From an uncultured Candidatus Saccharibacteria bacterium (GTDB lineage Bacteria > Patescibacteriota > Saccharimonadia > Saccharimonadales > Saccharimonadaceae): a stretch of DNA of 64,000 nt. The stretch is taken from the NCBI GenBank assembly GCA_964578645.1, contig CAZODR010000003.1, positions 13,951 to 77,950 on the forward strand. Direction: 5' to 3'. The notes under the pieces were generated by a model that saw nothing but the letters and a program-made list of their open reading frames with translations, ran no database searches and was not told where the DNA came from. The stretch's first letter is position 1. Each line of letters starts with the position of its first letter. Position numbers and translations under genes: made by a program. Of the stretch, positions 2,423-62,119 are shown piece after piece.

Positions 2423-4642
2423 ATGAATGCAATTCTCGGAGGTCTGAATCCCGCGCAAAGGGAAGCTGTCGAAACTTTGTCAGGGCCGCTTTTGGTACTC
2501 GCTGGGGCTGGGTCCGGCAAGACCAAGGTCCTGACCCACCGCATTGCGAACTTAATCGCTCATGGCGTTCGCCCGCATGAAATTCTCGCCGTGACTTTTA
2601 CTAATAAAGCCGCGAAAGAAATGCGCAATCGCCTCTGGAATTTGCTTGAGCGCCAGCGCGAAGATGCTATTGGCCGCGCTGACTTAGTTAGAGATAATGC
2701 TTTGCTCGAGCCTGCGCTTTTAGGCGACGAGCCCGGATCATTTTCTTCCGGAAAAGGTCCGAGCCGCTCATTCATGCCCTACATGGGGACTTTTCATGGC
2801 ATTTGTGTGCGTATTCTGCGCATCGAACATCTCGCGGTCGGCATTTCCTCAAATTTCACGATTTACGATTCCGACGACCAGCTGACCCTGATTCGTCGTA
2901 TTATGCGCGAAATGAAATTGACTGGCGAAAAAAGCTTGACTCCAAAGTCCGTCCATAGCCAAATTTCCAACTGGCAAACTCTCGGGACGACCCCCGAAGA
3001 AGCTAGCCGCGAAGCGATTTACCCCCACCAAAAGCACGCCGCCGCAGTTTTTGCCGCCTATCAGCGCGAAAAGACTGCTGCTTCTGCGCTCGATTTTGAC
3101 GATCTTTTGCTGAAGACTGCGAAATTGTTCCAAGAAAATTCCGCCGTGCGCGCGAAATGGCAACAACGCTTCCGTCATATTCTGATCGACGAGTATCAGG
3201 ATACAAACAGCGTCCAATATCGCCTGATTAAATATCTTGTCAATTCCGATCGTAATATTTGCGTCGTCGGTGACGACTGGCAATCGATTTATTCCTGGCG
3301 CGGCGCTGATTTTACGAATATTTTGAACTTTGAGCGCGATTTTCCGGGAGCAAAGGTCATTAAACTCGAGCAGAATTATCGCAGCACGGGAAACATTCTT
3401 GCCGCCTCGCAACAAATCATCAACCAAAACAAAACTCGCACCGAAAAAACGCTCTTTACCGAGCTCGGCAAGGGTGAGCCGATTACGATCGAAGGTGCAA
3501 TTGACGAAAATGACGAGGCCGCCTATGTCGCGAAGCAGATTTTGCGCCTGAAACCGAAGCATGATTTTAGCGATTTTGCCGTGCTTTATCGCACGAATGC
3601 GCAGTCTTATGCTTTTGAAAAAGCCTTCATGGCCGCGCGTATTCCGTATAAGATTATCGGCGGTGTAAGATTCTATGATCGCAAGGAAGTCAAGGATGTC
3701 ATCGCTCTGCTGAAGTTACTCGTAAATCCACGCGATCGCGTTAGCCTTGAGCGCGTAGTGAAAAATGTCTTGAGCGGTGTCGGCCAGACTTCGCTGGAAA
3801 AGATTTTTTCCTATCTTGAGGCTCATCCTGAGGACGATCTCATGGCTGCGACCTCAGTCTTGACCGCTCGGGCGAAGCTCAATGTGTCGCGCCTCGCGAA
3901 TTTTATTACTGAATATCGTGAAAATTCGGACGCTTCAGGCGATTTGGGCAGTGTTCTGCCCGAAGATGTTGCAGAAATTTTGGCGGGCGCGACGGTGCTG
4001 GCGCCGCCGGCGGAGGTCGTGGAACGTACGGTGCGTTATTTCGGCTTCGCCGATTTGCTTCATGCTGAGACGCCGGACGGCGCCGAACGTATGAAAAACC
4101 TCGAAGTTCTCGCGAGCAACGCTAGTACTTACGACACTTTGGACGAATTCCTCGCCGACGCCGCCCTGCTAAGCTCGGCCGACGAATCTAGCGCGAAAAA
4201 TTCCGTCTCCCTAATGACGCTCCATGCCGCGAAAGGCCTAGAATTCCCGATTGTGTTTATCGTCGGCCTCGAAGAGGGCCTCTTCCCCAGCAGCCGCTCC
4301 GATGGCTCCGAAGAAGCTCTCGAGGAAGAGCGTCGGCTGGCCTACGTCGGCATGACCCGAGCCATGCGCGAGCTTTTCCTGACCTTCGCCGGCTCCCGCT
4401 ATGCTTTCGGCGGCCGGACGTATAACGAACCTTCCCAGTTCCTGCTCGAACTCGGCTATAATCCTTATGGCGTTGGGAATTTTGGCGAATCTGGCGGTTT
4501 TGACGTCGATATGAATGGCTTCGCTAGCGGTGGGAACGTCGGCAGCCTCGGGTTGCTGGGCGGCGATCCCGACGGGGAATTTAGTGATCTCGGTTCCGAT
4601 TACGATCCTTTTCCGGATGATGTGCCAGTTTTCGAAGGTTAG
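2423..4642 (+). CDS. uvrD: UvrD/PcrA-family ATP-dependent DNA helicase
   Basis: Motifs AGAGSGKT, DEYQDTN, VGDDWQSIYSWRGA, LEQNYRS, LHAAKGLEFP and RRLAYVGMTRA. Start moved to ATG 2423, 7 nt after TATAAT 2410..2415. Confidence 0.92.
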   Translation: MNAILGGLNPAQREAVETLSGPLLVLAGAGSGKTKVLTHRIANLIAHGVRPHEILAVTFTNKAAKEMRNRLWNLLERQREDAIGRADLVRDNALLEPALLGDEPGSFSSGKGPSRSFMPYMGTFHGICVRILRIEHLAVGISSNFTIYDSDDQLTLIRRIMREMKLTGEKSLTPKSVHSQISNWQTLGTTPEEASREAIYPHQKHAAAVFAAYQREKTAASALDFDDLLLKTAKLFQENSAVRAKWQQRFRHILIDEYQDTNSVQYRLIKYLVNSDRNICVVGDDWQSIYSWRGADFTNILNFERDFPGAKVIKLEQNYRSTGNILAASQQIINQNKTRTEKTLFTELGKGEPITIEGAIDENDEAAYVAKQILRLKPKHDFSDFAVLYRTNAQSYAFEKAFMAARIPYKIIGGVRFYDRKEVKDVIALLKLLVNPRDRVSLERVVKNVLSGVGQTSLEKIFSYLEAHPEDDLMAATSVLTARAKLNVSRLANFITEYRENSDASGDLGSVLPEDVAEILAGATVLAPPAEVVERTVRYFGFADLLHAETPDGAERMKNLEVLASNASTYDTLDEFLADAALLSSADESSAKNSVSLMTLHAAKGLEFPIVFIVGLEEGLFPSSRSDGSEEALEEERRLAYVGMTRAMRELFLTFAGSRYAFGGRTYNEPSQFLLELGYNPYGVGNFGESGGFDVDMNGFASGGNVGSLGLLGGDPDGEFSDLGSDYDPFPDDVPVFEG

Positions 4643-8039: not shown

Positions 8040-9461
8040 ATGTCAAAAGTTTATCTCTGCACCGCGATTCCTTATGTGAACGGCAATCCTCATATTGGTC
8101 ATGCTTTAGATTATCTTCTCGCCGACACTTATGCGCGTTTTCGCCGCGATCTCGGCGATGAAGTGCGACTCCAAGTCGGTACTGATGAGCATGGCAACAA
8201 AGTTTTTCGCAGCGCCGAGAAAAATCATCTATCCGTCGAAGATTACGCTACAAAAAATTCGGCGAAATTTCACGATTTTATCCAAAAATTAAACATCAGC
8301 TACACGGATTTTATCCGCACGACTGATGCTGACCATGTGCGCCGATGCCAAGCGATTTGGGAGAAGCTCGCTCCGCATATTTATTCCGCGGAGTATGATG
8401 GCTGGTACTGTGAAGGTTGCGAAAGTTTCGTGACCCAAAAAGAATATGACGAATGCGAGGGAATCTGTCCCGATCACCAAAAGCCTTATGAAAAATTAAG
8501 CGAGAAAAATTATTATCTCCGGATTTCCGACTTTAAGGACGAAATTCGCGACCAGATTGAGCGCGACAAACTCGAAATCCTTCCCGTATTTCGCAAGAAA
8601 GAAGTCCTGCGTCTGCTCGAAGATGCTCCGGACGTTTCGATTTCGCGTCCGCGTGGCCAGCTCAGCTGGGGCGTCCCCGTTCCTGGCGACGATAGCCAGG
8701 TCATGTATGTCTGGCTTGATGCCTTGAGCAACTATATCACTGTTTTGGGCTATCCCGATCACGATATTTCCGAGTTCTGGCCAGCCACGGCGCAATTTAT
8801 CGGCAAAGACATTCTGCGTTTCCACGCCATTATTTGGCCCGCAATTTTGCTCGGTCTCGGTCTGCCGCTCCCCCAGCGCCTCGTTACGCATGGTTACGTG
8901 CTTGCAGACGGGCAAAAGATGAGCAAAAGCATCGGTAATGTCGTCGATCCGATCTCGGTTATCGATCGTCATGGTCTCGAGGCTTTTCGTTATTTCTTTT
9001 TGCGCCATGTCGACACTTTCGCTGACTCCGATTTTACTTGGGAAAAGTTCGATCGTGCTTATAATAATGAGCTTGCGAACGACCTCGGCAATCTCGTCCA
9101 GCGTTTGGCTGCGATGTGCAAGAAAAATCACATCGTCGGTCGAGAATCCGAGGGTGAGCTCAGCCCAGAGTATACCGAACTTATGGCAAATTTTCAATTC
9201 ACGAAAGCGTTTAATTACATCTGGAAAGACATCCAAAGCCTAAATAAGCGCATTGATGAAGAAAAGCCTTGGGAACTCGCCAAAGCTGGCGAAACCGCCA
9301 AGGTCGAACAAGTGCTTGGCTCGCTTGTTGATGGGTTGCTTGTTGTTGCGAAAATGCTACGGCCTCTGTTGCCGGATACCGCGAGCAAAATCACTGCAAT
9401 CTTTAGCGTCCAAGACATAATTAGCCCAGGCGAAGCGCCACTATTCCCTAAGGAACGCTAA
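8040..9461 (+). CDS. metG: Methionyl-tRNA synthetase
   Basis: Class I HIGH-type motif (NGNPHIGH) and KMSKS. TGTGCTATAAT lies 8 nt upstream of the ATG. Confidence 0.93.
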   Translation: MSKVYLCTAIPYVNGNPHIGHALDYLLADTYARFRRDLGDEVRLQVGTDEHGNKVFRSAEKNHLSVEDYATKNSAKFHDFIQKLNISYTDFIRTTDADHVRRCQAIWEKLAPHIYSAEYDGWYCEGCESFVTQKEYDECEGICPDHQKPYEKLSEKNYYLRISDFKDEIRDQIERDKLEILPVFRKKEVLRLLEDAPDVSISRPRGQLSWGVPVPGDDSQVMYVWLDALSNYITVLGYPDHDISEFWPATAQFIGKDILRFHAIIWPAILLGLGLPLPQRLVTHGYVLADGQKMSKSIGNVVDPISVIDRHGLEAFRYFFLRHVDTFADSDFTWEKFDRAYNNELANDLGNLVQRLAAMCKKNHIVGRESEGELSPEYTELMANFQFTKAFNYIWKDIQSLNKRIDEEKPWELAKAGETAKVEQVLGSLVDGLLVVAKMLRPLLPDTASKITAIFSVQDIISPGEAPLFPKER

Positions 9462-9554
9462 GTCGACCCGGTTAGCGAAGGCATGGGGCGCGGGCATTCT
9501 TCTGCGCGCCCCACCCCATAACTCGGCGCATTGCACCACGCAATCCTCAGTCCC

Positions 9555-11543
9555 CTAGTTGCTCGCCCCTAACCAATATTTCTTTCCGCTCGACAAGTCA
9601 TAATTCACTAGCTCGTACTCGTCCAGCACGTCCGTGACCTCTAGCGGATTTTCCTCATTATAGAAACTTGGAGCTAAGATCGGCGCATCCTCACAAACCG
9701 CATCTTCGAGATACATCAGCGTCGGTTTTTGCGACCCAATCAAATCATACATCGTATTCACTAGACAATTCGGGCTCACCGTTGGCAAATCCACTCCCTT
9801 GACCATTGAAAAGTCGAATCCTAATTCTTGATTCAGCTCCTTTACAGCGTCCTTGCTAAACCTATTTTCCAAATCAAAATTCGCATAGACAAAGTACGGC
9901 GTCAAATGCACTAAATTAACCAAACTTTGATCATCCGAAGTCGCATAATCGCTCAACGCCCCCGCCGCATGATCCCCAAACCAAATCACTACCGTCCTCT
10001 CATCCAACTTATCCAACTTCTCGATAAACTCCCCGAGATATTCATCCGCATGATGCATATTCTCATATGTCAACTCAACATCATCACCATGCCAGACATT
10101 ATCCTTCTTTAGCTTAAACTGCCGTGTAGAATATTTCGCAGAATCAAACGGCGTATGATTCTGGATCGTAATCGCTCCGATCGCCTGCGGCTCTTTCTCG
10201 TCTTCCAAAATCTTCAAGATCTGTTTATAAACTGATTCATCACTAACGAAACCATTACCGTTTTCCTTCTCCGCAAAATCCATCGTATTAATATCAAGAA
10301 ACTCATCGAATTGCATCGCCGGATAAACTAGGTTACGCTTATACATCGTGCGGTTAAACGGATGCAGCGCCGTAGTCTGGAAATCATTTTCTTTCGCGTA
10401 GCTAATTAATCCCGGCAAAACTTTTAGCTTACTTGCAAAAGTCGCGTACGGAACCGTCTGCGCCCAATAATTCGACAATCCTGTAAACGCCGAGAACTCT
10501 ACATTTGCCGTATTTCCGCCATATTCCGGCGAATACATATATCCGCTAGGATATTTCTCAAAAATCTTATGCAAATTCGGCGTCACGTCTCCGCCCGTAT
10601 GCTCATATTGTTCGCCCAAAACTGCCGGATCATAAAAACTTTCATTCATAATAAAGACCACATTGTCCGCGACCTGACTAAGAGGCTTACGTTTCGCATC
10701 GTCTTTCTGCTTCTCGGCTCGATATTTTTGCGCAATCTCTTCGACGCGCTCCTTGCTATAATCTTCCGGCGCTTCTAATTTCAACGATCCCAAATCACGC
10801 ATAAACGCAATAATATAACCGTTCTGCTCATAATTCATCGATTGATTACAAAGTTCGAATTTCAATCCTTCGAGCCAAGGCAGTTCTTCCTCCGTCCGGT
10901 TATGTACGACAGGATCGGCCAGCATTACTAGCGCCGTCACTGCGATTAAAACGAAGCTCAGTCGCGGTACAATCTCAAATCTTTCCCACCAAACTCGTTC
11001 TTTAGAATTATACCCCACCAATTTTTTAGCATAATGTTCCAGCAAAATCGCGCCAATAATTACTAGGATAATTCCGATAGCCAACCGCACGACCTCGCGC
11101 ATATCGACGAATTCCATCAACGCGCCGTCCGCCAGCTGAAAATCCCCCGGAACCAACGGCGTGCTACGAAACTTATACTTTTGTGTATTCGCATACATTA
11201 AAGCCGCCAACCCCGAAAACACCAGCGCCGTGCTCAGGAAAGGTTTCCACAAAATCGCGCTCAGCGTCACCAAAATCAACAAAATAATCAAACAGCTATA
11301 ACTAAACAGCGCCGGCTTTTCCTGAATATAATTCATCACCTCCCCCGCGTCCTGATTATATTGCTGCCACAATACAAACCATCCCAAAATCAAGGACATA
11401 ATTATCAAAAACAAAAACGACAACAAAACTCGCAGAATCGTCGGCATCGCATGTCGCGATTTTTCTTCCAGCTGCTCTTCCTTCGAAATCAGTTCCGCTT
11501 CCTTTGTGTTTTTATCGACCGAATTTTTCACGTTTTTCTTCAT
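9555..11543 (-). CDS. LTA-synthase/sulfatase-family membrane protein
   Basis: N-terminal multi-TM region plus an extracellular sulfatase-like domain (MNESFYDP, GGNTANVEFSAFTG). Start moved to MKKNVKN (11543), 9 nt after TATAAT. Confidence 0.8.
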   Translation of the reverse strand: MKKNVKNSVDKNTKEAELISKEEQLEEKSRHAMPTILRVLLSFLFLIIMSLILGWFVLWQQYNQDAGEVMNYIQEKPALFSYSCLIILLILVTLSAILWKPFLSTALVFSGLAALMYANTQKYKFRSTPLVPGDFQLADGALMEFVDMREVVRLAIGIILVIIGAILLEHYAKKLVGYNSKERVWWERFEIVPRLSFVLIAVTALVMLADPVVHNRTEEELPWLEGLKFELCNQSMNYEQNGYIIAFMRDLGSLKLEAPEDYSKERVEEIAQKYRAEKQKDDAKRKPLSQVADNVVFIMNESFYDPAVLGEQYEHTGGDVTPNLHKIFEKYPSGYMYSPEYGGNTANVEFSAFTGLSNYWAQTVPYATFASKLKVLPGLISYAKENDFQTTALHPFNRTMYKRNLVYPAMQFDEFLDINTMDFAEKENGNGFVSDESVYKQILKILEDEKEPQAIGAITIQNHTPFDSAKYSTRQFKLKKDNVWHGDDVELTYENMHHADEYLGEFIEKLDKLDERTVVIWFGDHAAGALSDYATSDDQSLVNLVHLTPYFVYANFDLENRFSKDAVKELNQELGFDFSMVKGVDLPTVSPNCLVNTMYDLIGSQKPTLMYLEDAVCEDAPILAPSFYNEENPLEVTDVLDEYELVNYDLSSGKKYWLGASN

Positions 11544-29579: not shown

Positions 29580-30539
29580 ATGCAAAAAACAAGAAAGCAG
29601 ATCCTCGGGATTGCAGGTTTGCTCGCTGTCGGCGTAATGACTGCCGTCGCTTGCGCTATGCCAACGCCGAACGCAGCGGCCGCTGAAGGGGATCATAATG
29701 TTGATATTAATGTCACGATTCGTGAGGGCGCCCCGCGTATAAAAATCAATAGCCCGCTCGACAATAGTTCGACCCTCGATCCTACGGTGACGACTAGCTA
29801 TACCTACGAGGACGTCGTGCGCGTCGAGACTCACCTGATTTATACTGACGATTCTGGTAAGGAAATCGACACTATTATCGATACCTTCGTCCCGACCGAA
29901 AAATATGGCACGCGTAGCTTCCCAACTGATCTTAGCAGCCTCGGTTATCGCGATTATCGTATCAAAACTGTCGGTTATAGTAATGGTGGCACTGCTCGCG
30001 AGGATACAGTCTCCTTCAACTACCGCGCTATCAAAGCTGACTTCGACCGCGGTGTGAACGAGAAAAACGATCCTATCCTCAGCGTCGAAGCTAATGCTGA
30101 CGTCGAAAAGGTCCAAGTCCAAGTTTACGGCAAGGACGGGAAACCGCTTTTCGTGAACAAAGATGGCAAAGAGGTCCCAGTAGTGATCAATCGTAGTGCC
30201 ATCGATCCGACGACCGGGAAGTTTACCGTGGCTCTGCCTTTCGGCGAATACGGCGCCGCTGATGGCGAATATACCGCCGTCATAGTCGCCTACAACGCAA
30301 AAGACGACATCATCTCGATGGTCACCTTGCCCGTTAAGTATTCCAAGACCGGCTCGACTGGCGGCGATGGGACGACGACTCCCGGCCAGGTCACGCCAGA
30401 AACTCCGAATACCGGCTCGACGATCTTCGGTAGTTTGACCCGAATCGATTATATCATTACCGCAATTGTCGCTTTCATGGTTGCCGCTGGTTTCGCCGTC
30501 TTCCTAGTAATGCGTAATCGCAAGCACCAAAACCAATAA
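29580..30539 (+). CDS. Secreted surface protein with C-terminal PNTG sorting signal
   Basis: Signal peptide and Ig-like beta-rich body. C-terminus is TPETPNTGS, then a hydrophobic helix, then RNRKHQNQ. Confidence 0.85.
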   Translation: MQKTRKQILGIAGLLAVGVMTAVACAMPTPNAAAAEGDHNVDINVTIREGAPRIKINSPLDNSSTLDPTVTTSYTYEDVVRVETHLIYTDDSGKEIDTIIDTFVPTEKYGTRSFPTDLSSLGYRDYRIKTVGYSNGGTAREDTVSFNYRAIKADFDRGVNEKNDPILSVEANADVEKVQVQVYGKDGKPLFVNKDGKEVPVVINRSAIDPTTGKFTVALPFGEYGAADGEYTAVIVAYNAKDDIISMVTLPVKYSKTGSTGGDGTTTPGQVTPETPNTGSTIFGSLTRIDYIITAIVAFMVAAGFAVFLVMRNRKHQNQ

Positions 30540-51126: not shown

Positions 51127-51834
51127 ATGCCGCTAATTTATATCATCGAAGATGAACCGGTCATGGCCGATTGTTTGGCGCTCGCGGTTCGCCAATTCAC
51201 CTTGCCTGAGCCCAAAGTTGCTGCCAAAAACCGAGCTGGTTTGCCGGATTCTCAGGCTGATACTGAAGTTTTCCCTGAGGTGGAGATTTTCTATGACGCG
51301 CTCGCGCCCATGGCTGAGCTCTCGAACCGCCTTCCGGATGCAATTTTGCTCGACGTCATGCTGACCGGCCCCGACGGTTTCACTTTTCTCAACGAACTTT
51401 TATCCTACGAAGACACCGCGCGCATTCCGGTCGTGCTCATTTCCAGTCTCGACCTTTCGGGGCGCAACCTTGAGCATTATGGCGTCGTCCAATACCTCGA
51501 CAAAGCGACCATGACTCCCGAGGACATTAATGTCGCGTTGAGAAAAGCGCTCAGCACCGATTCCCCTCGGACTGTTGCTGGTGAAGCTAGCCAGCCATCG
51601 CCGACTGAAAATATTACTAGTGGACCTACGCAGGCCTCAGCTCAGCCGCTGTCTGGGCTCGCCGCGCTGAACGAAAAGATATCCGCGCTGAATGAAAAAA
51701 CGGCCGCGCAGAATGAAAAAGCCTCCGCGCTGGACCGAGAAACGGCCGTGCAGGACGAAAAAGCCTCCGCCCAAAATCCTGCCGCTTCGCCGGCTGAGGA
51801 GCGCGCGGCGAGCCCAGGGCGGTATGGGGCGTGA
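51127..51834 (+). CDS. Response-regulator receiver protein with no recognisable output domain and a heptad-repeat tail
   Basis: Receiver pattern (IYIIEDEP.., LLDVMLTGPDGF, VVLISS). The tail has 7-aa repeats (SALNEKT / AAQNEKA / SALDRET / AVQDEKA). Confidence 0.8.
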   Translation: MPLIYIIEDEPVMADCLALAVRQFTLPEPKVAAKNRAGLPDSQADTEVFPEVEIFYDALAPMAELSNRLPDAILLDVMLTGPDGFTFLNELLSYEDTARIPVVLISSLDLSGRNLEHYGVVQYLDKATMTPEDINVALRKALSTDSPRTVAGEASQPSPTENITSGPTQASAQPLSGLAALNEKISALNEKTAAQNEKASALDRETAVQDEKASAQNPAASPAEERAASPGRYGA

Positions 51835-52489
51835 TCTTCGGACTCGGGCCGTAGTTCTGCGCCGCACGAACTATGCCGAATGCGACCGAATCTTGAGCCT
51901 TCTCACTCCCGAAGGCAAAATTTCCGTCCTCGCCCACGGCGTCCGCAAAGAAAAGTCCCGTCTCGCCGGCAGCATCGAACTTTTCACTGTCGCCGATGTC
52001 GTCATCCATGAAGGCCGCGCCCGTCTCGCGACGCTGACCAGTGCGAAAATGTTGCGCTTTTTCAACAATTTGCTTGCCGATCTCGACGCGCTTGAGCTCG
52101 CTAGCCAGATTCTGCGCCAGCTCGACCGTGCCGCCGAGCAAGTTTCCAGCCCAGATTATTTTCGCTTGCTTTGCGAATCGCTCGACGGGCTGAACCGCGG
52201 CCTGAGCCACGACCTTGTCCATACCTGGTTTTTGTTTAATCTCGCCCGTATTGGCGGCGAAGAGTTTAATCTCATATATGATATAAATGGCGAGAAATTA
52301 TCCGAAAATATCCGCTATAACTGGGATTTTCAGGAAAAATCCCTGAAGCCTAATTCGTCTGGTGATATATCATCGCGAGAAATCAAACTCGCCCGTTGTT
52401 TGCTGACGAAATCTTTAGCGTTTTGCGGTCAGATTGAAAATTTCGACTCCTCGCTCGTCCCGCTTGCGAAAATCGCCCGCACCGATTAG
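51824..52489 (+). CDS. recO: DNA repair protein RecO
   Basis: RAVVLRRTNYAECDRILSLLTPEGKISVLAHGVRK. Start moved to ATG 51824, overlapping the regulator stop. Confidence 0.85.
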   Translation: MGRDLRTRAVVLRRTNYAECDRILSLLTPEGKISVLAHGVRKEKSRLAGSIELFTVADVVIHEGRARLATLTSAKMLRFFNNLLADLDALELASQILRQLDRAAEQVSSPDYFRLLCESLDGLNRGLSHDLVHTWFLFNLARIGGEEFNLIYDINGEKLSENIRYNWDFQEKSLKPNSSGDISSREIKLARCLLTKSLAFCGQIENFDSSLVPLAKIARTD

Positions 52490-52514
52490 CTGCTGGGAAT
52501 CCCGCGAAAAGCCC

Positions 52515-52544
52515 TTGACTTTTGCGACCGGGGGGGGGTATCAT
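52515..52544 (+). promoter_or_regulatory. Promoter with a G9 homopolymer in the spacer
   Basis: TTGACT (52515..52520), an 18-nt spacer ending in nine G (52530..52538), then TATCAT (52539..52544). Confidence 0.65.
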
Positions 52545-52579
52545 AGAAGTATAGTAATAAACATAAACAGGAAAATAAT

Positions 52580-53319
52580 ATGAAGAAGATGAGAAACAAA
52601 ATCGTCGCCACGACTTTGGCTGCGGCGGTGCTCGCGGCGGGATTCTGCTCATCTATACGCTGGGTAGTGCCGAAGGTCATATTACTGGCACGATCGACGA
52701 CTTCATTGCTAGAGATCTGAAGGTTCCGGATGCCTATAAAGACAAAACTTTCGGCGAGCTAATCGCTTATGGAAAGACTATTTCCGCTTATACTTCTGAC
52801 GCCGCGTTTAAGGAGGTCATCGATGACGACCAGGCGATTTATGATCGCGGTGTGAAATCTCTGCGCACCTATCTTCCCGTGGTCGATTCGACTTTGACCG
52901 GGCTGGATACGAAGACTGGCGACGAATTGCTCGCGCTTTATGATGCACTTCCGATTGTCAAGGATGGAAGCTACAAACCTCTGATTTCGGCGGCTAATTT
53001 TGCTGGTGGGCTTGTGCTGGCTTGCGAAGCTAATCCCGCTAATTGTAATAGCGACGAAGCGACAAACGCTTATGCTACGCTCGTGTCCGAAGCCACGAAA
53101 CTCAACAAAGATTTCACGGTCAACTTGTCCGGCCTGACGCCATTGCCCGAAGCTTCGGCTGCCGCGCCCGCCGCTCCTAATACCGGCTCGCTCAGCAAAG
53201 AACTTTCCAGCACGCTCGTCCAAGTCGCGCTCGGCCTAGTTGCCGGAATCGCGGGCGTCTCCGGCGCTGTCTATACCGCGAAGCGTTACCTCTTTAGCCC
53301 TCTGAAACGGCGCAAATAA
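52580..53319 (+). pseudogene. PNTG-sorted surface protein gene with interrupted frame (signal/TM part in one frame, body in another)
   Basis: ATG 52580 encodes MKKMRNKIVATTLAAAVLAAG.. and hits TGA at 52718. The frame of ORF 52852..53319 is open from 52579 but has no start there. One extra G at GGG 52639..52641 would fuse them. C-terminus is AAPNTGS, then TM, then KRYLFSPLKRRK. Confidence 0.6.
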
Positions 53320-53421
53320 CCGTCGGCTGGTAAAAGCACTGCCCAGGCGGTGCTTTTTCATGTTTTGCCTTCGCCCAGATCGGATTATTGACTATAATGA
53401 AGATAATGGTATTATATAAAT

Positions 53422-54627
53422 ATGAACCGTATTCCACTGCCGGAGCGTATGCGCCCCCAGAGTTTAGACGAAGTCATTGGCCAGTCCGAAATTATCGGCC
53501 CGGGGAAAATTTTGACCGAAATTGTGAAAAAAGCCGAACCAGTGAATTTGATTTTTTGGGGTCCGCCTGGGACCGGGAAAACGACTTTGGCGCGCATTCT
53601 CGCGAAGGAATATCAGGCCGATTTCGTCGAGCTTTCCGCGGTTACGGCGCACAAAAAAGATGTCGAAGAAGTCGTCGAACGCGCGAAAATTAACTGGAAC
53701 CTGAAAATTCGCACCGTGCTTTTTGTCGACGAAATTCATCGGTTTAATAAGGCGCAACAGGACGCATTTCTGCCTCATGTTGAGTCTGGCCTGATCATTC
53801 TCATCGGCGCGACGACCGAGAATCCGAGCTTCGAAGTGATTTCGCCGCTGATTTCGCGTTCACGCGTCGTGGTCGTCGCGCCCCTCGACCACGCGGCGAT
53901 CTTGGCCGTGTTGCGCCGAGCGCTAAAGGCCGAACAAGCCGAAGATCGCGTGTCCGAAGATGCTCTGGCCTACATTGCCGAATTGTCGGGTGGCGATGCG
54001 CGCTCGGCGCTCGGCGACCTCGAACTCGCCTTGAATTTGGCCAAAAAGGTCGACCGTTCCGTCGTCGAAACCGCCGTCGGCAAAAAGATGCCGCTCTACG
54101 ACAAATCCGGCGATTATCATTACGACAACATTTCCGCTTTTATCAAGTCCATGCGCGGCTCCGACGTCGATGCGACGCTGTATTATCTCGCGCGCATGGT
54201 TGCGAGCGGGGAAGATCCGAAATTCATCGCCCGGCGCATGGTAATTTTTGCTTCCGAGGATATTGGCATTGCTGGCAACGGCGCTCTTAACCTTGCCGTA
54301 AGCGCTTTCGAGGCTATCGAGCGCGTGGGTATGCCCGAAGGCGGCATCATCCTCAGCCACGTTGCGACGGTTCTCGCGAAGGCGAAGAAAAATCGCGAGG
54401 CCTACGACGGCTGGGCTCGCGCGCAGGCGCTCGCCCAGAAGACCATGGGTTGCCCCGTCCCGACTTGGCTGCGCAATGCTCCGACAAAATTGATGAAAGA
54501 TCTCGGCTTCGGCAAGGGTCAGAAATGGGAGGCCGGCTTCCATCTCGACAAAAACTATCTCCCCGACGAGATTAAAAACGAAAAAATCTTTGGCCAGCCC
54601 AGCAACTACGACCACAACGCGAAATAA
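53422..54627 (+). CDS. rarA: Replication-associated recombination protein A (AAA+ ATPase)
   Basis: WGPPGTGKTTLA, LFVDEIHRFNK and the MgsA C-terminal region (YDNISAFIKSMRGSD, YYLARM). Confidence 0.92.
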   Translation: MNRIPLPERMRPQSLDEVIGQSEIIGPGKILTEIVKKAEPVNLIFWGPPGTGKTTLARILAKEYQADFVELSAVTAHKKDVEEVVERAKINWNLKIRTVLFVDEIHRFNKAQQDAFLPHVESGLIILIGATTENPSFEVISPLISRSRVVVVAPLDHAAILAVLRRALKAEQAEDRVSEDALAYIAELSGGDARSALGDLELALNLAKKVDRSVVETAVGKKMPLYDKSGDYHYDNISAFIKSMRGSDVDATLYYLARMVASGEDPKFIARRMVIFASEDIGIAGNGALNLAVSAFEAIERVGMPEGGIILSHVATVLAKAKKNREAYDGWARAQALAQKTMGCPVPTWLRNAPTKLMKDLGFGKGQKWEAGFHLDKNYLPDEIKNEKIFGQPSNYDHNAK

Positions 54628-60234: not shown

Positions 60235-62049
60235 TTATTCCTCCATGAACGCGCCGCTCTGTCGCCCCCAAAGCCCGCGATAAACTCCCTGTTCCTTCTT
60301 CAGTAATTCCGTATGCCGCCCTTGCTCGACAATTTTCCCATCAGCCATGACGACAATCCGGTCCAACCCCGCAACAGTCGACAAGCGGTGCGCAATCACA
60401 ATGCTCGTCCGCCCTTTCATCAGTTTTTCCAGCGCATCTTGAATCAATGCCTCGCTCTCCGAGTCGAGCGCGCTAGTCGCCTCGTCCAAGACCAGAATCG
60501 GCGCATCCTTGAGAATTGCCCGCGCGATCGCAATCCGCTGTCGCTGGCCGCCCGAAAGTTTAATCCCGCGCTCGCCGACCAAGGTTTCATATCCCTGCGG
60601 CAGCTCGCGAATAAACTCATCCGCATTCGCCTGCTTCGCCGCCCAGACGATTTCCTCCGGCTTCGCGTCCAACTTTCCATAAGCAATGTTCTCCGCGATC
60701 GTGCGATGAAACAGCGCGGTTTCTTGCGGCACATACGCGATATTCTCCCGCAAAGATTGTTGCGTAATCTTCTTAATATCCTGCCCCGAAATCGTAATTT
60801 TCCCAGCCTGAACATCCGCGAACCGTAGTAGCAGCTTCGTCAGCGTCGTCTTCCCACTGCCCGAAACCCCGACGAGCCCGATCCGTTCTCCCGGCTTCAC
60901 TTCGAGGCTAAAGTCCTTGAAAATCGCCGTTTTCGCGTCCTTGTGTTTGAAATCAATCCGGTCAAAATCCACCGCCGCTTCCTCGAGCACCAGCGGCTTC
61001 GCATCCTCCGCGTCGACGACATCGTCCTCCATATCCAGAATCAGCGTCATGTCGTGCGCGTCGCCAAACACGCGGTTAAAATTCTTCAAAATCGAGTTTA
61101 TGCTCCAAAGTTCGCCCTGAATCGACTGCGCATAATTCACGATCAGAATCAGCGTCGCGATCGAGACCCCGAGCCACTCTCGCCCCACGAGCAAGAACAC
61201 CAAAATCAGCGCCGTAATCCCCATCTGCACGAAATTAAACATAATATCGCGCTTAATCGTCGCCCCCATCAGGTTCAGCCCACACTTCATCGTATTTCGC
61301 GAGAACTTCGCGTACCGTTCGCGCTCATGCTTCTCGCCGGCGTATGACTTCACCGAAGTAATATTCGTAATCGAATCGGCGAGCTGCCCCGTCTGCTTCG
61401 ATTCTGCCGCCGCCTCGTCGCTATTAAACTTCGAAATTTTCCGAAAACACGCCGCCGAGATCAGGGCATAAATCACCGTAAACACGAGCACTCCCAGCGC
61501 AAACCACGGCACTTGCGGCAGCAGAATTACCACCACCATCACGATGAATGTCACCATCGGCAGCAAATCCCAAATAAACACATCCGTTAACCGCTCGAAC
61601 GCCCAGACAAATTTATTCGTCTGCGAAACCAGCGATCCCGAGAAACGATCGTTGTGGAACTGCATCGATTGCGCGCTCACCGTATCGAAACATTTGCTCG
61701 CCAGATCATAAATCGCCATCAGCTCCATTTTCCAACACCAATACAGCCGCAGTTCCTCGAAAACCAGCTTATTCACGACATAAATTCCGAAAAACATCAA
61801 AACTTCCGGCAGCGCTGTCTTTATTAATTCCTCCAGCGACAGCCCGAGAGAGACCTTTTCGATCAAATCCGCAAAAATCAATGGCGCCAAAATCGCCCGA
61901 ATAAACACCACGAGCGGAGTAATCGCCACCATACCCAGCGAATACCACTTATACTTGACAACTTCCTGCCAATAATAATGCAGGGTGCGAGCCGTCGTCT
62001 TCGCTTTGTCGGCTTTGTCTTCTGGTTTGGTCTCGGAATTTTTACTCAT
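60235..62049 (-). CDS. Fused TMD-NBD ABC exporter (MsbA/multidrug type)
   Basis: Six N-terminal TM helices, Walker A GVSGSGKTT, LSGGQRQR and ILVLDEATS. TATAAT lies 7 nt before the ATG. Confidence 0.92.
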   Translation of the reverse strand: MSKNSETKPEDKADKAKTTARTLHYYWQEVVKYKWYSLGMVAITPLVVFIRAILAPLIFADLIEKVSLGLSLEELIKTALPEVLMFFGIYVVNKLVFEELRLYWCWKMELMAIYDLASKCFDTVSAQSMQFHNDRFSGSLVSQTNKFVWAFERLTDVFIWDLLPMVTFIVMVVVILLPQVPWFALGVLVFTVIYALISAACFRKISKFNSDEAAAESKQTGQLADSITNITSVKSYAGEKHERERYAKFSRNTMKCGLNLMGATIKRDIMFNFVQMGITALILVFLLVGREWLGVSIATLILIVNYAQSIQGELWSINSILKNFNRVFGDAHDMTLILDMEDDVVDAEDAKPLVLEEAAVDFDRIDFKHKDAKTAIFKDFSLEVKPGERIGLVGVSGSGKTTLTKLLLRFADVQAGKITISGQDIKKITQQSLRENIAYVPQETALFHRTIAENIAYGKLDAKPEEIVWAAKQANADEFIRELPQGYETLVGERGIKLSGGQRQRIAIARAILKDAPILVLDEATSALDSESEALIQDALEKLMKGRTSIVIAHRLSTVAGLDRIVVMADGKIVEQGRHTELLKKEQGVYRGLWGRQSGAFMEE

Positions 62050-62109
62050 GCGCTTAATTATATACTACTTGTTTCGAATGAGCAAGCATAATTCTGGACA
62101 AAATTCTCC

Positions 62110-62119
62110 GGGGGGGGGG
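62110..62119. repeat. G10 homopolymer in the intergenic region
   Basis: Ten consecutive G, between the divergent exporter gene (start 62049) and the 62214 promoter. Confidence 0.9.

Follow-up and report, generated by a model that had tools for sequence, protein, structure and literature searches.

A poly-G tract in the promoter spacer of a Saccharibacteria surface-protein family: a probable slipped-strand switch, here apparently vestigial above a gene broken by deletion

INTRODUCTION

Saccharibacteria live as ultra-small episymbionts and are difficult to grow in culture, and the regulation of their surface proteins is poorly understood. In some other bacteria the length of a promoter homopolymer sets the phase of a surface structure, as is the case for the poly-C of fim2/fim3 in Bordetella pertussis, a C-stretch lying between an activator site and the −10 box, and for the poly-A of the vlp genes in Mycoplasma hyorhinis. 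These tracts differ in base, position and organism from the Saccharibacteria poly-G that is the subject of the present paper.

Closer counterparts carry the homopolymer in the promoter spacer itself. In Neisseria meningitidis a spacer poly-G in front of porA regulates the amount of a major surface protein like a volume control, and expression of this protein is abolished when the optimal spacing is lost (PMC3639595; PMC7864442). The poly-C of opc in the same species is a comparable tract. In Treponema pallidum the gene tp0126, which encodes an OmpW homologue, has a poly-G between its −35 and −10 boxes and is transcribed optimally with a 17-nt spacer (PMC7864442), a dependence of expression on length that was shown by reporters together with fragment-length analysis (PMC7864442). 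The modal length in vivo is about 9 (as given for the related tprL tract), with variation from 7 to 11 (PMC7864442). The poly-G tracts of tprE/G/J/L, in contrast with the one described here, are located upstream of the transcription start site and not in the spacer. Our full-text searches of the literature brought up no account of phase variation through simple repeats in Saccharibacteria, Patescibacteria or CPR, the matches dealing instead with nanopore homopolymer errors, phase variation in host bacteria and a repeat-region gene in Gracilibacteria.

The locus analysed in the present study, which lies in a 64-kb stretch of DNA (the whole of which is referred to as the window), resembles tp0126 in that a G homopolymer occupies the spacer in front of a surface-protein gene of a small-genome, host-associated bacterium. 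Saccharibacteria belong, however, to another phylum, the protein is unrelated, and the length dependence is deduced here from sequence. The comparison with Neisseria has similar limits, as the porA tract is internal to the spacer and serves a Gram-negative porin, whereas the Saccharibacteria tract always adjoins the −10 box and the gene in the window has probably been inactivated by a deletion. We consider it probable that the segment at 52515–52544 is a σ70-type promoter in which a mutable tract of Gs in the spacer serves as a slipped-strand switch, left in this copy as a vestige above a gene broken by deletion. Such a switch would be of a known kind, but apparently one that is undescribed in Saccharibacteria.

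RESULTS AND DISCUSSION

A PNTG-anchored protein family and its genomic setting

The gene is flanked by recO (51692–52489) and rarA/mgsA (53422–54627). The RarA protein encoded just downstream is 79–89% identical to proteins from MAGs (metagenome-assembled genomes) of uncultured Saccharibacteria (TM7), mostly from the guts of mice and other animals, with ‘Ca. Nanosyncoccus’ being more distant. As recO and rarA are directly adjacent in most related species, the surface-protein gene and its promoter appear to be an accessory insertion.

Relatives of the protein proved to be very few in a collection of 5.8 billion proteins. They comprised P0001, an intact 326-aa orthologue that is 74% identical and is likewise found after recO (contig L001), P0003, a protein of 331 aa with 38% identity and a different genomic context, and a single cluster of 155-aa fragments, which corresponds to the truncated gene of the window as it occurs in other samples. 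When 1.84 billion representative proteins were searched with a profile, 38 relatives were obtained, 13 of them full-length family members of 316–348 aa; the remainder include proteins with unrelated N-terminal domains that share only the C-terminal signal.

This C-terminal sorting signal occupies positions 53176–53316 of the window (+ strand) and consists of PNTG (53176–53187), a hydrophobic, presumptive TM (transmembrane) segment (53215–53277) and the tail AKRYLFSPLKRRK (53278–53316). Its general form, [ALTIV]P[NDKE][TSA]G followed by a hydrophobic segment and KRYLFSPLKRRK, is conserved in 20 or more proteins, and in the intact orthologues a Sec-type signal peptide (with its cleavage site between AYA and E in P0001) is combined with the C-terminal PNTG, TM segment and basic tail. 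These features suggest that the product of the controlled gene is exposed on the surface and that it is anchored there by a sortase-like mechanism. An N-terminal signal peptide, a C-terminal xPxTG-like pentapeptide, a hydrophobic segment and a basic tail are also shared by the LPXTG substrates of Gram-positive bacteria, and the present protein does have an LPXTG-type pentapeptide in front of a hydrophobic segment and a positively charged tail. It did not, however, match curated LPXTG-anchor models, and it departs from the LPXTG type in its motif, which reads PNTG in the window, and in a tail that is long and nearly invariant. A crude motif scan of the 64-kb window for a sortase-like ORF (open reading frame) with TLxTC found none.

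The AlphaFold model of P0001 is all-alpha with a mean pLDDT of 76.9, many 10-residue blocks of the core scoring above 90. Comparison of this model with the PDB by Foldseek gave no meaningful match (best E value 0.78, TM scores ≤0.18), and neither Pfam (E≤0.01) nor NCBIfam (E≤1) returned a family for the reconstructed protein, P0001 or P0003.

A G9 tract in the spacer of the promoter

The promoter begins with the −35 hexamer TTGACT (52515–52520), after which come a fixed spacer part of 9 nt, tttgcgacc (52521–52529), a G9 homopolymer (52530–52538) that forms the 3′ half of the 18-nt spacer (52521–52538) and touches the next element, and the −10 hexamer TATCAT (52539–52544), all of them on the + strand. 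This layout, with nine Gs as the last bases of an 18-nt spacer, reproduces in every coordinate what an initial annotation of the same DNA had described. In a consensus scan the TTGACT/TATCAT pair agreed at 10 out of 12 positions, and the sequence-level promoter call places TTGACT-18-TATCAT 36 nt upstream of ATG 52580. The leader (52545–52579, + strand) contains a Shine–Dalgarno-like AGGAAA (52569–52574) that ends 5 nt before this ATG. The −35 hexamer is the same in the orthologous locus L001 despite the diverged sequence further upstream, and from the −10 box to the ATG the window and L001 show only two differences, although the proteins are just 74% identical and the coding sequence is far more diverged. 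At nine residues, the putative slipped-strand tract falls within the range of hypermutable homopolymers (about 7–8 or more), and its position between the −35 and −10 boxes is such that its length sets their spacing.

The tract also stands out from its surroundings. Other G runs in the window do not exceed 5, apart from a G10 at 62110–62119, and since third-order Markov simulations predict only 0.12 G/C runs of 9 or more per window, the G9 is more than would be expected by chance. Over 1.47 Mb, made up of the window and related loci, the lengths of G/C runs are bimodal, with 36 runs of length 6, two of length 7 and 43 of length 8–20.

The importance of the spacing was assessed from motif pairs in 1.37 Mb of DNA from this clade. 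The pair TTGAC[AT]-N-TAnnAT occurred 204 times with a spacer of 17 nt, 33 times with 16 nt, 12 times with 18 nt and 5–21 times at each of the other spacings tested, and TTGnnn-N-TATAAT displayed the same peak (196 at 17 nt). From these counts, promoters of the clade appear to tolerate almost no departure from a 17-nt spacer. The proposal that the loss of one G would bring the promoter to its optimal 17-nt spacing is borne out to the extent that the motif pairs of the clade strictly favour this value. As they are found almost exclusively at 17 nt, a weak or OFF promoter is predicted for the G9 of the window (18 nt) and for the G6 found in the same lineage (15 nt), and the ON state for a G8.

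The poly-G promoter across the protein family

To compare promoter layouts, we fetched the DNA of several family members. The promoter of the window lineage (TTGACT, a fixed segment of 9 nt, G6 or G9, and TATCAT) has its nearest equivalent in L001, which has the same hexamers and a fixed segment of the same length (TTGACT, 9 nt, TATCAT) with a G10. More distant members vary in each element: P0003 has TTGCAA, a fixed segment of 5 nt, G9–12 and TATAAT; P0013 has TTGATT, 5 nt, G8 and TAAAAT; P0014 has TTGCAA, 10 nt, G8 or G9 and TACAAT; and P0008 has TTGACT, 6 nt, an interrupted tract (GGGGGGAGGGCG) and TAATAT. In all of these promoters the G run adjoins the −10 box, which is followed by the ATG at a distance of 36–41 nt. 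The order of −35 box, fixed segment, poly-G, −10 box and leader is therefore kept by five diverged family members in different genomic contexts. The proteins behind these promoters are only 30–40% identical and have different genomic neighbourhoods, which indicates that the tract is maintained together with the gene. The G tract is missing upstream of the family members P0009 and P0010, and the architecture thus belongs to a sub-clade and not to the whole family. The homologous tracts in other family members range from G8 to G12.

Variation in tract length

Tract length varies among near-identical contigs in two of these lineages. In six P0003 contigs with identical 2-kb flanks (1 kb on each side) the tract measured G9, 10, 12, 11, 9 and 9, and among ten P0014 contigs, also with identical flanks, nine had G9 and one had G8, all homopolymer lengths having been taken from short-read and Logan assemblies, in which some error is to be expected. 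A scan of JGI metagenomes for the P0003 promoter yielded one further contig, with G9. The window promoter had no match in the JGI metagenome scan, and an exact look-up of the window RarA for further samples returned nothing.

Within the lineage of the window, the tract is G9 in the window itself and in L095, G6 in L003, L094 and L096, and at least 9 in L002, where it meets the end of the contig. Here G9 is linked perfectly to an A-type upstream haplotype and G6 to a B-type, so that a single 3-nt event suffices to account for the difference. The contig L002 begins exactly at the first G of its G9, a place at which the k-mer graph would branch if G9 and longer alleles coexisted in the sample. 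In this broken-gene lineage G6 makes up three of the five measurable tracts and is shorter than any tract found before an intact gene (8–12), which fits relaxed maintenance after loss of the gene.

The consensus tract lengths almost all give spacers other than 17 nt (13, 14, 15, 18 or 19 nt), the 17-nt spacer being reached by only one of 11 P0003 contigs (with G12), and G9 is the modal tract in both P0003 and P0014, despite a difference of 5 nt between their fixed segments. Either the sampled populations are usually in the OFF state, or there are gaps in the −35 assignments or in the spacing model. The same two observations, i.e. lengths that seldom yield a 17-nt spacer and a modal G9 that is independent of the length of the fixed part, can be taken to mean that the poly-G is not a switch but a neutral hot spot of mutation in a genome with weak repeat repair, a structural or regulator-binding element, or a tract in which the length variation is incidental or assembly noise; the varied positions of the other long tracts of the clade point in the same direction. 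We regard this as unlikely. The tract stays against the −10 box across proteins of 30–40% identity while its surroundings have diverged, and homopolymers of this length decay fast unless they are maintained, the interrupted tract of P0008 showing that such decay does happen. In addition, runs of length 7 are almost absent and lengths of 9–12 are common, and identical architectures have been proven experimentally to be switches in Neisseria and Treponema (PMC7864442).

In the explanation that we favour, a promoter cassette composed of a −35 box, a short fixed segment, the poly-G, a −10 box and a 36–41-nt leader would be inherited together with a Saccharibacteria family of secreted proteins, all-alpha and anchored C-terminally via the PNTG-type signal, the TM segment and the KRYLFSPLKRRK tail. 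[quoted passage not shown] For the window lineage, G8 would be the ON state, with expression being low or OFF at G9 (18 nt) and G6 (15 nt). We infer that tract length controls transcription and that its changes are reversible within a population. The reading of the tract as a promoter switch is supported at the level of the family; the copy in the window is probably a vestige of such a switch.

The coding frame is broken by a 244-nt deletion

The frame that starts at ATG 52580 comprises 46 codons and stops at TGA 52718–52720. The rest of the protein continues in another frame, which is open from 52579 to TAA 53317–53319 and in which the first ATG, GTG or TTG is GTG 52852. Both of these facts had been recognized in the initial annotation, as had the observation, which is arithmetically true, that one G added to the GGG at 52639–52641 fuses the two frames; a second slipped-strand switch, a true pseudogene and a sequencing error had been offered as explanations.

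What broke the frame was a deletion of 244 nt and not a one-base slip. In a DNA alignment with L001, the window is without exactly 244 nt that L001 has at 2806–3049, and the lost sequence corresponds to 81 codons plus one base and includes the signal-peptidase site (between AYA and ETNP in P0001). Because 244 leaves a remainder of 1 on division by 3, the frame shifts. The junction in this alignment, TTCTG|CTCATC, lies between 52647 and 52648 (+ strand), six bases downstream of the GGG. On its 5′ side, the remnant at 52580–52647 (+ strand) retains the start codon and the h-region of the signal peptide (MKKMRNKIVATTLAAAVLAAGFC) and aligns with residues 1–23 of the intact 326-aa P0001. On its 3′ side, the 46-codon ORF runs on in an out-of-frame tail (52648–52720, + strand), and the second remnant (52648–53319, + strand) uses the other frame, in which 223 codons and a final TAA encode the C-terminal sorting signal and, before it, the all-alpha ectodomain. 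A terminator-like hairpin and then a T run follow 3′ of the gene (53332–53357, + strand). The outgroup P0003 still has the region that is deleted in the window, which makes the deletion the derived state. Loss of these 244 nt between the core of the signal peptide and the ectodomain would thus have converted a single gene into a 46-codon ORF and a start-less remainder of 223 codons.

The same junction, with the GGG unchanged, is present in L002, L003, L094, L095 and L096, five contigs from different sequencing runs, so that the loss of sequence and frame relative to the intact orthologue is reproducible in independent samples and can be put down neither to sequencing error nor to slippage. The window lineage is represented in the runs SRR28237138, DRR848819, DRR768816, SRR31732372 and SRR32508451, and the intact orthologue in SRR33448122. 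An error of sequencing or assembly in this genome, for which only the general plausibility of indel errors could be adduced, has a negligible chance of being the cause when the junction and the frame recur in five other independent assemblies (six with the window) and the difference amounts to 244 nt and not to 1 nt. In addition, the other ORFs of the window are long and intact, indicating that frameshift errors are not general in it.

A switch at the GGG, acting as a second slipped-strand device beside the promoter tract with GGGG restoring the frame, is also very improbable. The added G would fuse the frames and give a plausible signal peptide with a possible cleavage site between LGSA and EG, but a run of only 3 nt is much too short to slip at a useful rate, this GGG is constant in six samples, which contain no tract at the break that varies between ON and OFF alleles, and the neighbouring deletion junction explains the break. 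In the other family members, moreover, the gene is a single ORF, and a tract is lacking at the corresponding position. The slipped-strand control suggested by the initial annotation is thus supported for the promoter, where the tract is conserved and variable, but not for the coding region, where the interruption is a deletion scar.

Haplotypes and the fate of the broken gene

The six samples represent two haplotypes, A (the window and L095) and B (L002 and L003), and two mosaics (L094 and L096), and the mosaic alleles indicate that recombination is active at the locus. Haplotypes A and B differ at 15 positions of the 669-nt downstream frame, of which 10 are synonymous and five non-synonymous, giving a dN/dS value of 0.17 (P=0.0009, or 0.01 with a transition-only null); as a control, the same substitutions scored in the other two frames gave 3:10 and 1:12. 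Secondary stops or indels were found in this frame in none of the six samples. The signs of relaxed selection that a pseudogene would display, i.e. a dN/dS near 1 and secondary lesions, are therefore not seen, and this combination is not what would be expected of a long-dead pseudogene. Of the three explanations offered at the outset for the coding break, a true pseudogene nevertheless comes closest, with the 244-nt deletion speaking for it and the dN/dS value speaking against it.

The low dN/dS might instead mean that the deleted allele is functional, with low-level −1 slippage (e.g. P-site tRNA-Gly slippage at G_GGA, 52639–52642) or some other recoding fusing the signal peptide to the ectodomain and so keeping the downstream frame under purifying selection. 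In keeping with this, the substitutions between the deletion haplotypes are concentrated at third positions of that frame only, the 669 nt have acquired no further stops or indels in six samples, and one and the same tRNA can decode both GGA and GGG. However, no X_XXY_YYZ heptamer occurs in 52580–52718, a downstream stimulatory RNA structure is absent (fold z=+0.86) and no family member makes use of frameshifting, the homologues being single ORFs; on these three grounds a programmed −1 ribosomal frameshift was rejected. The mosaics L094 and L096 tell against recoding in general as well, together with a 182-nt block around the junction (52483–52664) that does not vary among the samples and has clusters of differences on either side, as the deletion may be recent on haplotypes that had already diverged. 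We consider a functional, recoded allele to be quite unlikely.

A pseudogene can be reconciled with the low dN/dS because the mosaic alleles and the identical block allow a recent spread by recombination. Our preferred reading is that the deletion is recent and has been spread by recombination onto already diverged haplotypes, and the copy in the window most probably represents a pseudogene of recent origin, the vestigial switch of which has G9 in one haplotype and G6 in the other. No intact allele of the species-level lineage of the window was found in the 5.8-billion-protein collection. The split gene would be expected to make no functional protein. Were it still expressed, the peptide spanning the junction would read ...LAAG-ILLIYTLGSAEGH...

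A second tract and the wider set of contingency loci

The second long tract in the window (62110–62119) is G10 on the + strand and C10 on the strand of an ABC exporter gene (62049–60235). It lies approx. 60 nt upstream of the start of this gene and upstream of its core promoter, and orthologous ABC exporters have tracts of length 10–20 in 12 other species (13 with that of the window). Long tracts elsewhere in the clade are found at varied places, some of them within genes and others at about −60 relative to the ABC exporter promoter. In its position at about −60 the tract at 62110 resembles the C-stretch of Bordetella, although we know of no activator for the Saccharibacteria tracts.

On balance, we lean towards the view that gut Saccharibacteria carry a set of poly-G/C contingency loci, made up of the promoter-spacer tract of the PNTG-anchored family, the 10–20 Cs at about −60 of the ABC exporter promoter in at least 13 species and the tracts within coding regions. 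Such a set would be the first slipped-strand phase variation in the phylum and may control the display of surface proteins to bacterial hosts, phages or the mammalian immune system. If this is true, Saccharibacteria share the contingency-locus strategy of Neisseria, Treponema, Campylobacter and Mycoplasma, and specific surface proteins and an ABC exporter are singled out as being under fluctuating selection. The window itself represents a more modest finding, a decayed copy of the system. In practical terms, the tract can break assemblies, as in L002, and gene callers split or truncate the genes affected.

Poly-G and poly-C tracts elsewhere in the clade

A second long tract is present in the window at 62110-62119, reading as G10 on the plus strand and as C10 on the strand of the exporter, and lies upstream of an ABC exporter gene on the minus strand (62049-60235). 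Orthologous tracts of 10-20 residues were found in 12 other species (L015, L016, L018, L020, L021, L022, L025, L027, L028, L030, L034 and L081), with the conserved surroundings cccTTAAAATcg-C(n)-AGCAAAAT-N8-GAAAATGCTTGT, and the start codon of the exporter is located approximately 55-95 nt downstream of the tract. The tract is placed between divergent promoters and is directly followed by an A-rich, UP-like region of the exporter. It may provide another type of phase or volume control, similar to that of Bordetella fim. The core promoter of the exporter, TTGnnn-17-TATAAT, was located at 62049-62095 on the minus strand and in the same region of L015-L081. As only 7-11 nt separate the −10 box from the ATG, and no Shine-Dalgarno motif is present in the window or in L015-L081, the exporter mRNA would be leaderless or almost so.

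Further G8-G10 tracts were identified in related species (L037, 14515-14523; L055, 2052-2059; L074, 5749-5758), with the −10-like hexamers TATCAT, TATTTA and TAATAA at 0-4 nt past the tracts, one of which has an ABC transporter ATPase gene 48 nt downstream. Across the window and the contigs L014-L093 (1.37 Mb), promoter-like motif pairs were separated by 17 nt in 204 cases, compared with 16 nt in 33 and 18 nt in 12, and the spacer rule of 17 nt that these motif counts suggest for this clade of Saccharibacteria is unusually strict.

We also observed a poly-C tract in the 5′ portion of a gene that is encoded on the minus strand and adjoins the locus of P0003, an intact member of the surface-protein family (L004-L013, approximately 1770-1780; L113; also L058 at 17053 and L069 at 12241). 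Among contigs that are identical in the flanks of the promoter tract this coding tract contains 7, 9 or 10 C residues, and 11 in one more contig; the called product is 241 amino acids long with C9, but 211-212 amino acids with C7 or C10. The tract has the appearance of a classical frameshift switch within a coding region.

The promoters of two family members, P0009 and P0010, are of the TTGACA type and have no G tract (L098, approximately 120-250; L099-L101, approximately 1370-1500). After the promoter, approximately 50 nt upstream of the start codon, both carry a conserved GC-rich hairpin with a T run (gacgccttgcggtgtcgcttttt), which could be an attenuator or a small-RNA-like element.

The recO-rarA site and the deletion haplotypes

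Position 1 of L002, a Logan contig from SRR28237138, is exactly the first G of its G9 tract. Such a start point would be expected from branching of the assembly graph if the length of the G tract were heterogeneous in SRR28237138.

In most relatives recO directly abuts rarA (L014-L093, approximately 9000-10000; window counterpart 52490-53421). In several species other sequences, 0.4-3 kb long, are inserted between the two genes, so accessory genes seem to have a hot spot in this intergenic region. Comparison of window positions 52648-53316 with L002/L003 gave a dN/dS of 0.17, with both haplotypes bearing the frameshifting deletion, and the 182-nt block 52483-52664 was identical in all six samples that share the deletion junction. 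Together, these two results are unexplained unless the deletion is recent and has spread through recombination.

C-terminal sorting signal

The C-terminal sorting signal (window 53176-53316; P0008-P0042) has the form [ALTIV]P[NDKE][TSA]G, approximately 10 amino acids, a TM segment and (A)KRYLFSPLKRRK. Proteins with unrelated ectodomains have this signal in common, with an almost invariant tail that is matched by no Pfam or NCBIfam model. The signal may be the hallmark of a sorting system specific to this lineage. Another protein of the window with a PNTG-type signal, encoded on the plus strand at 29580-30539, ends in ETPNTG, a TM segment and RNRKHQNQ, a tail unlike that of the 53176-53316 signal, and poly-G is absent upstream of its gene.
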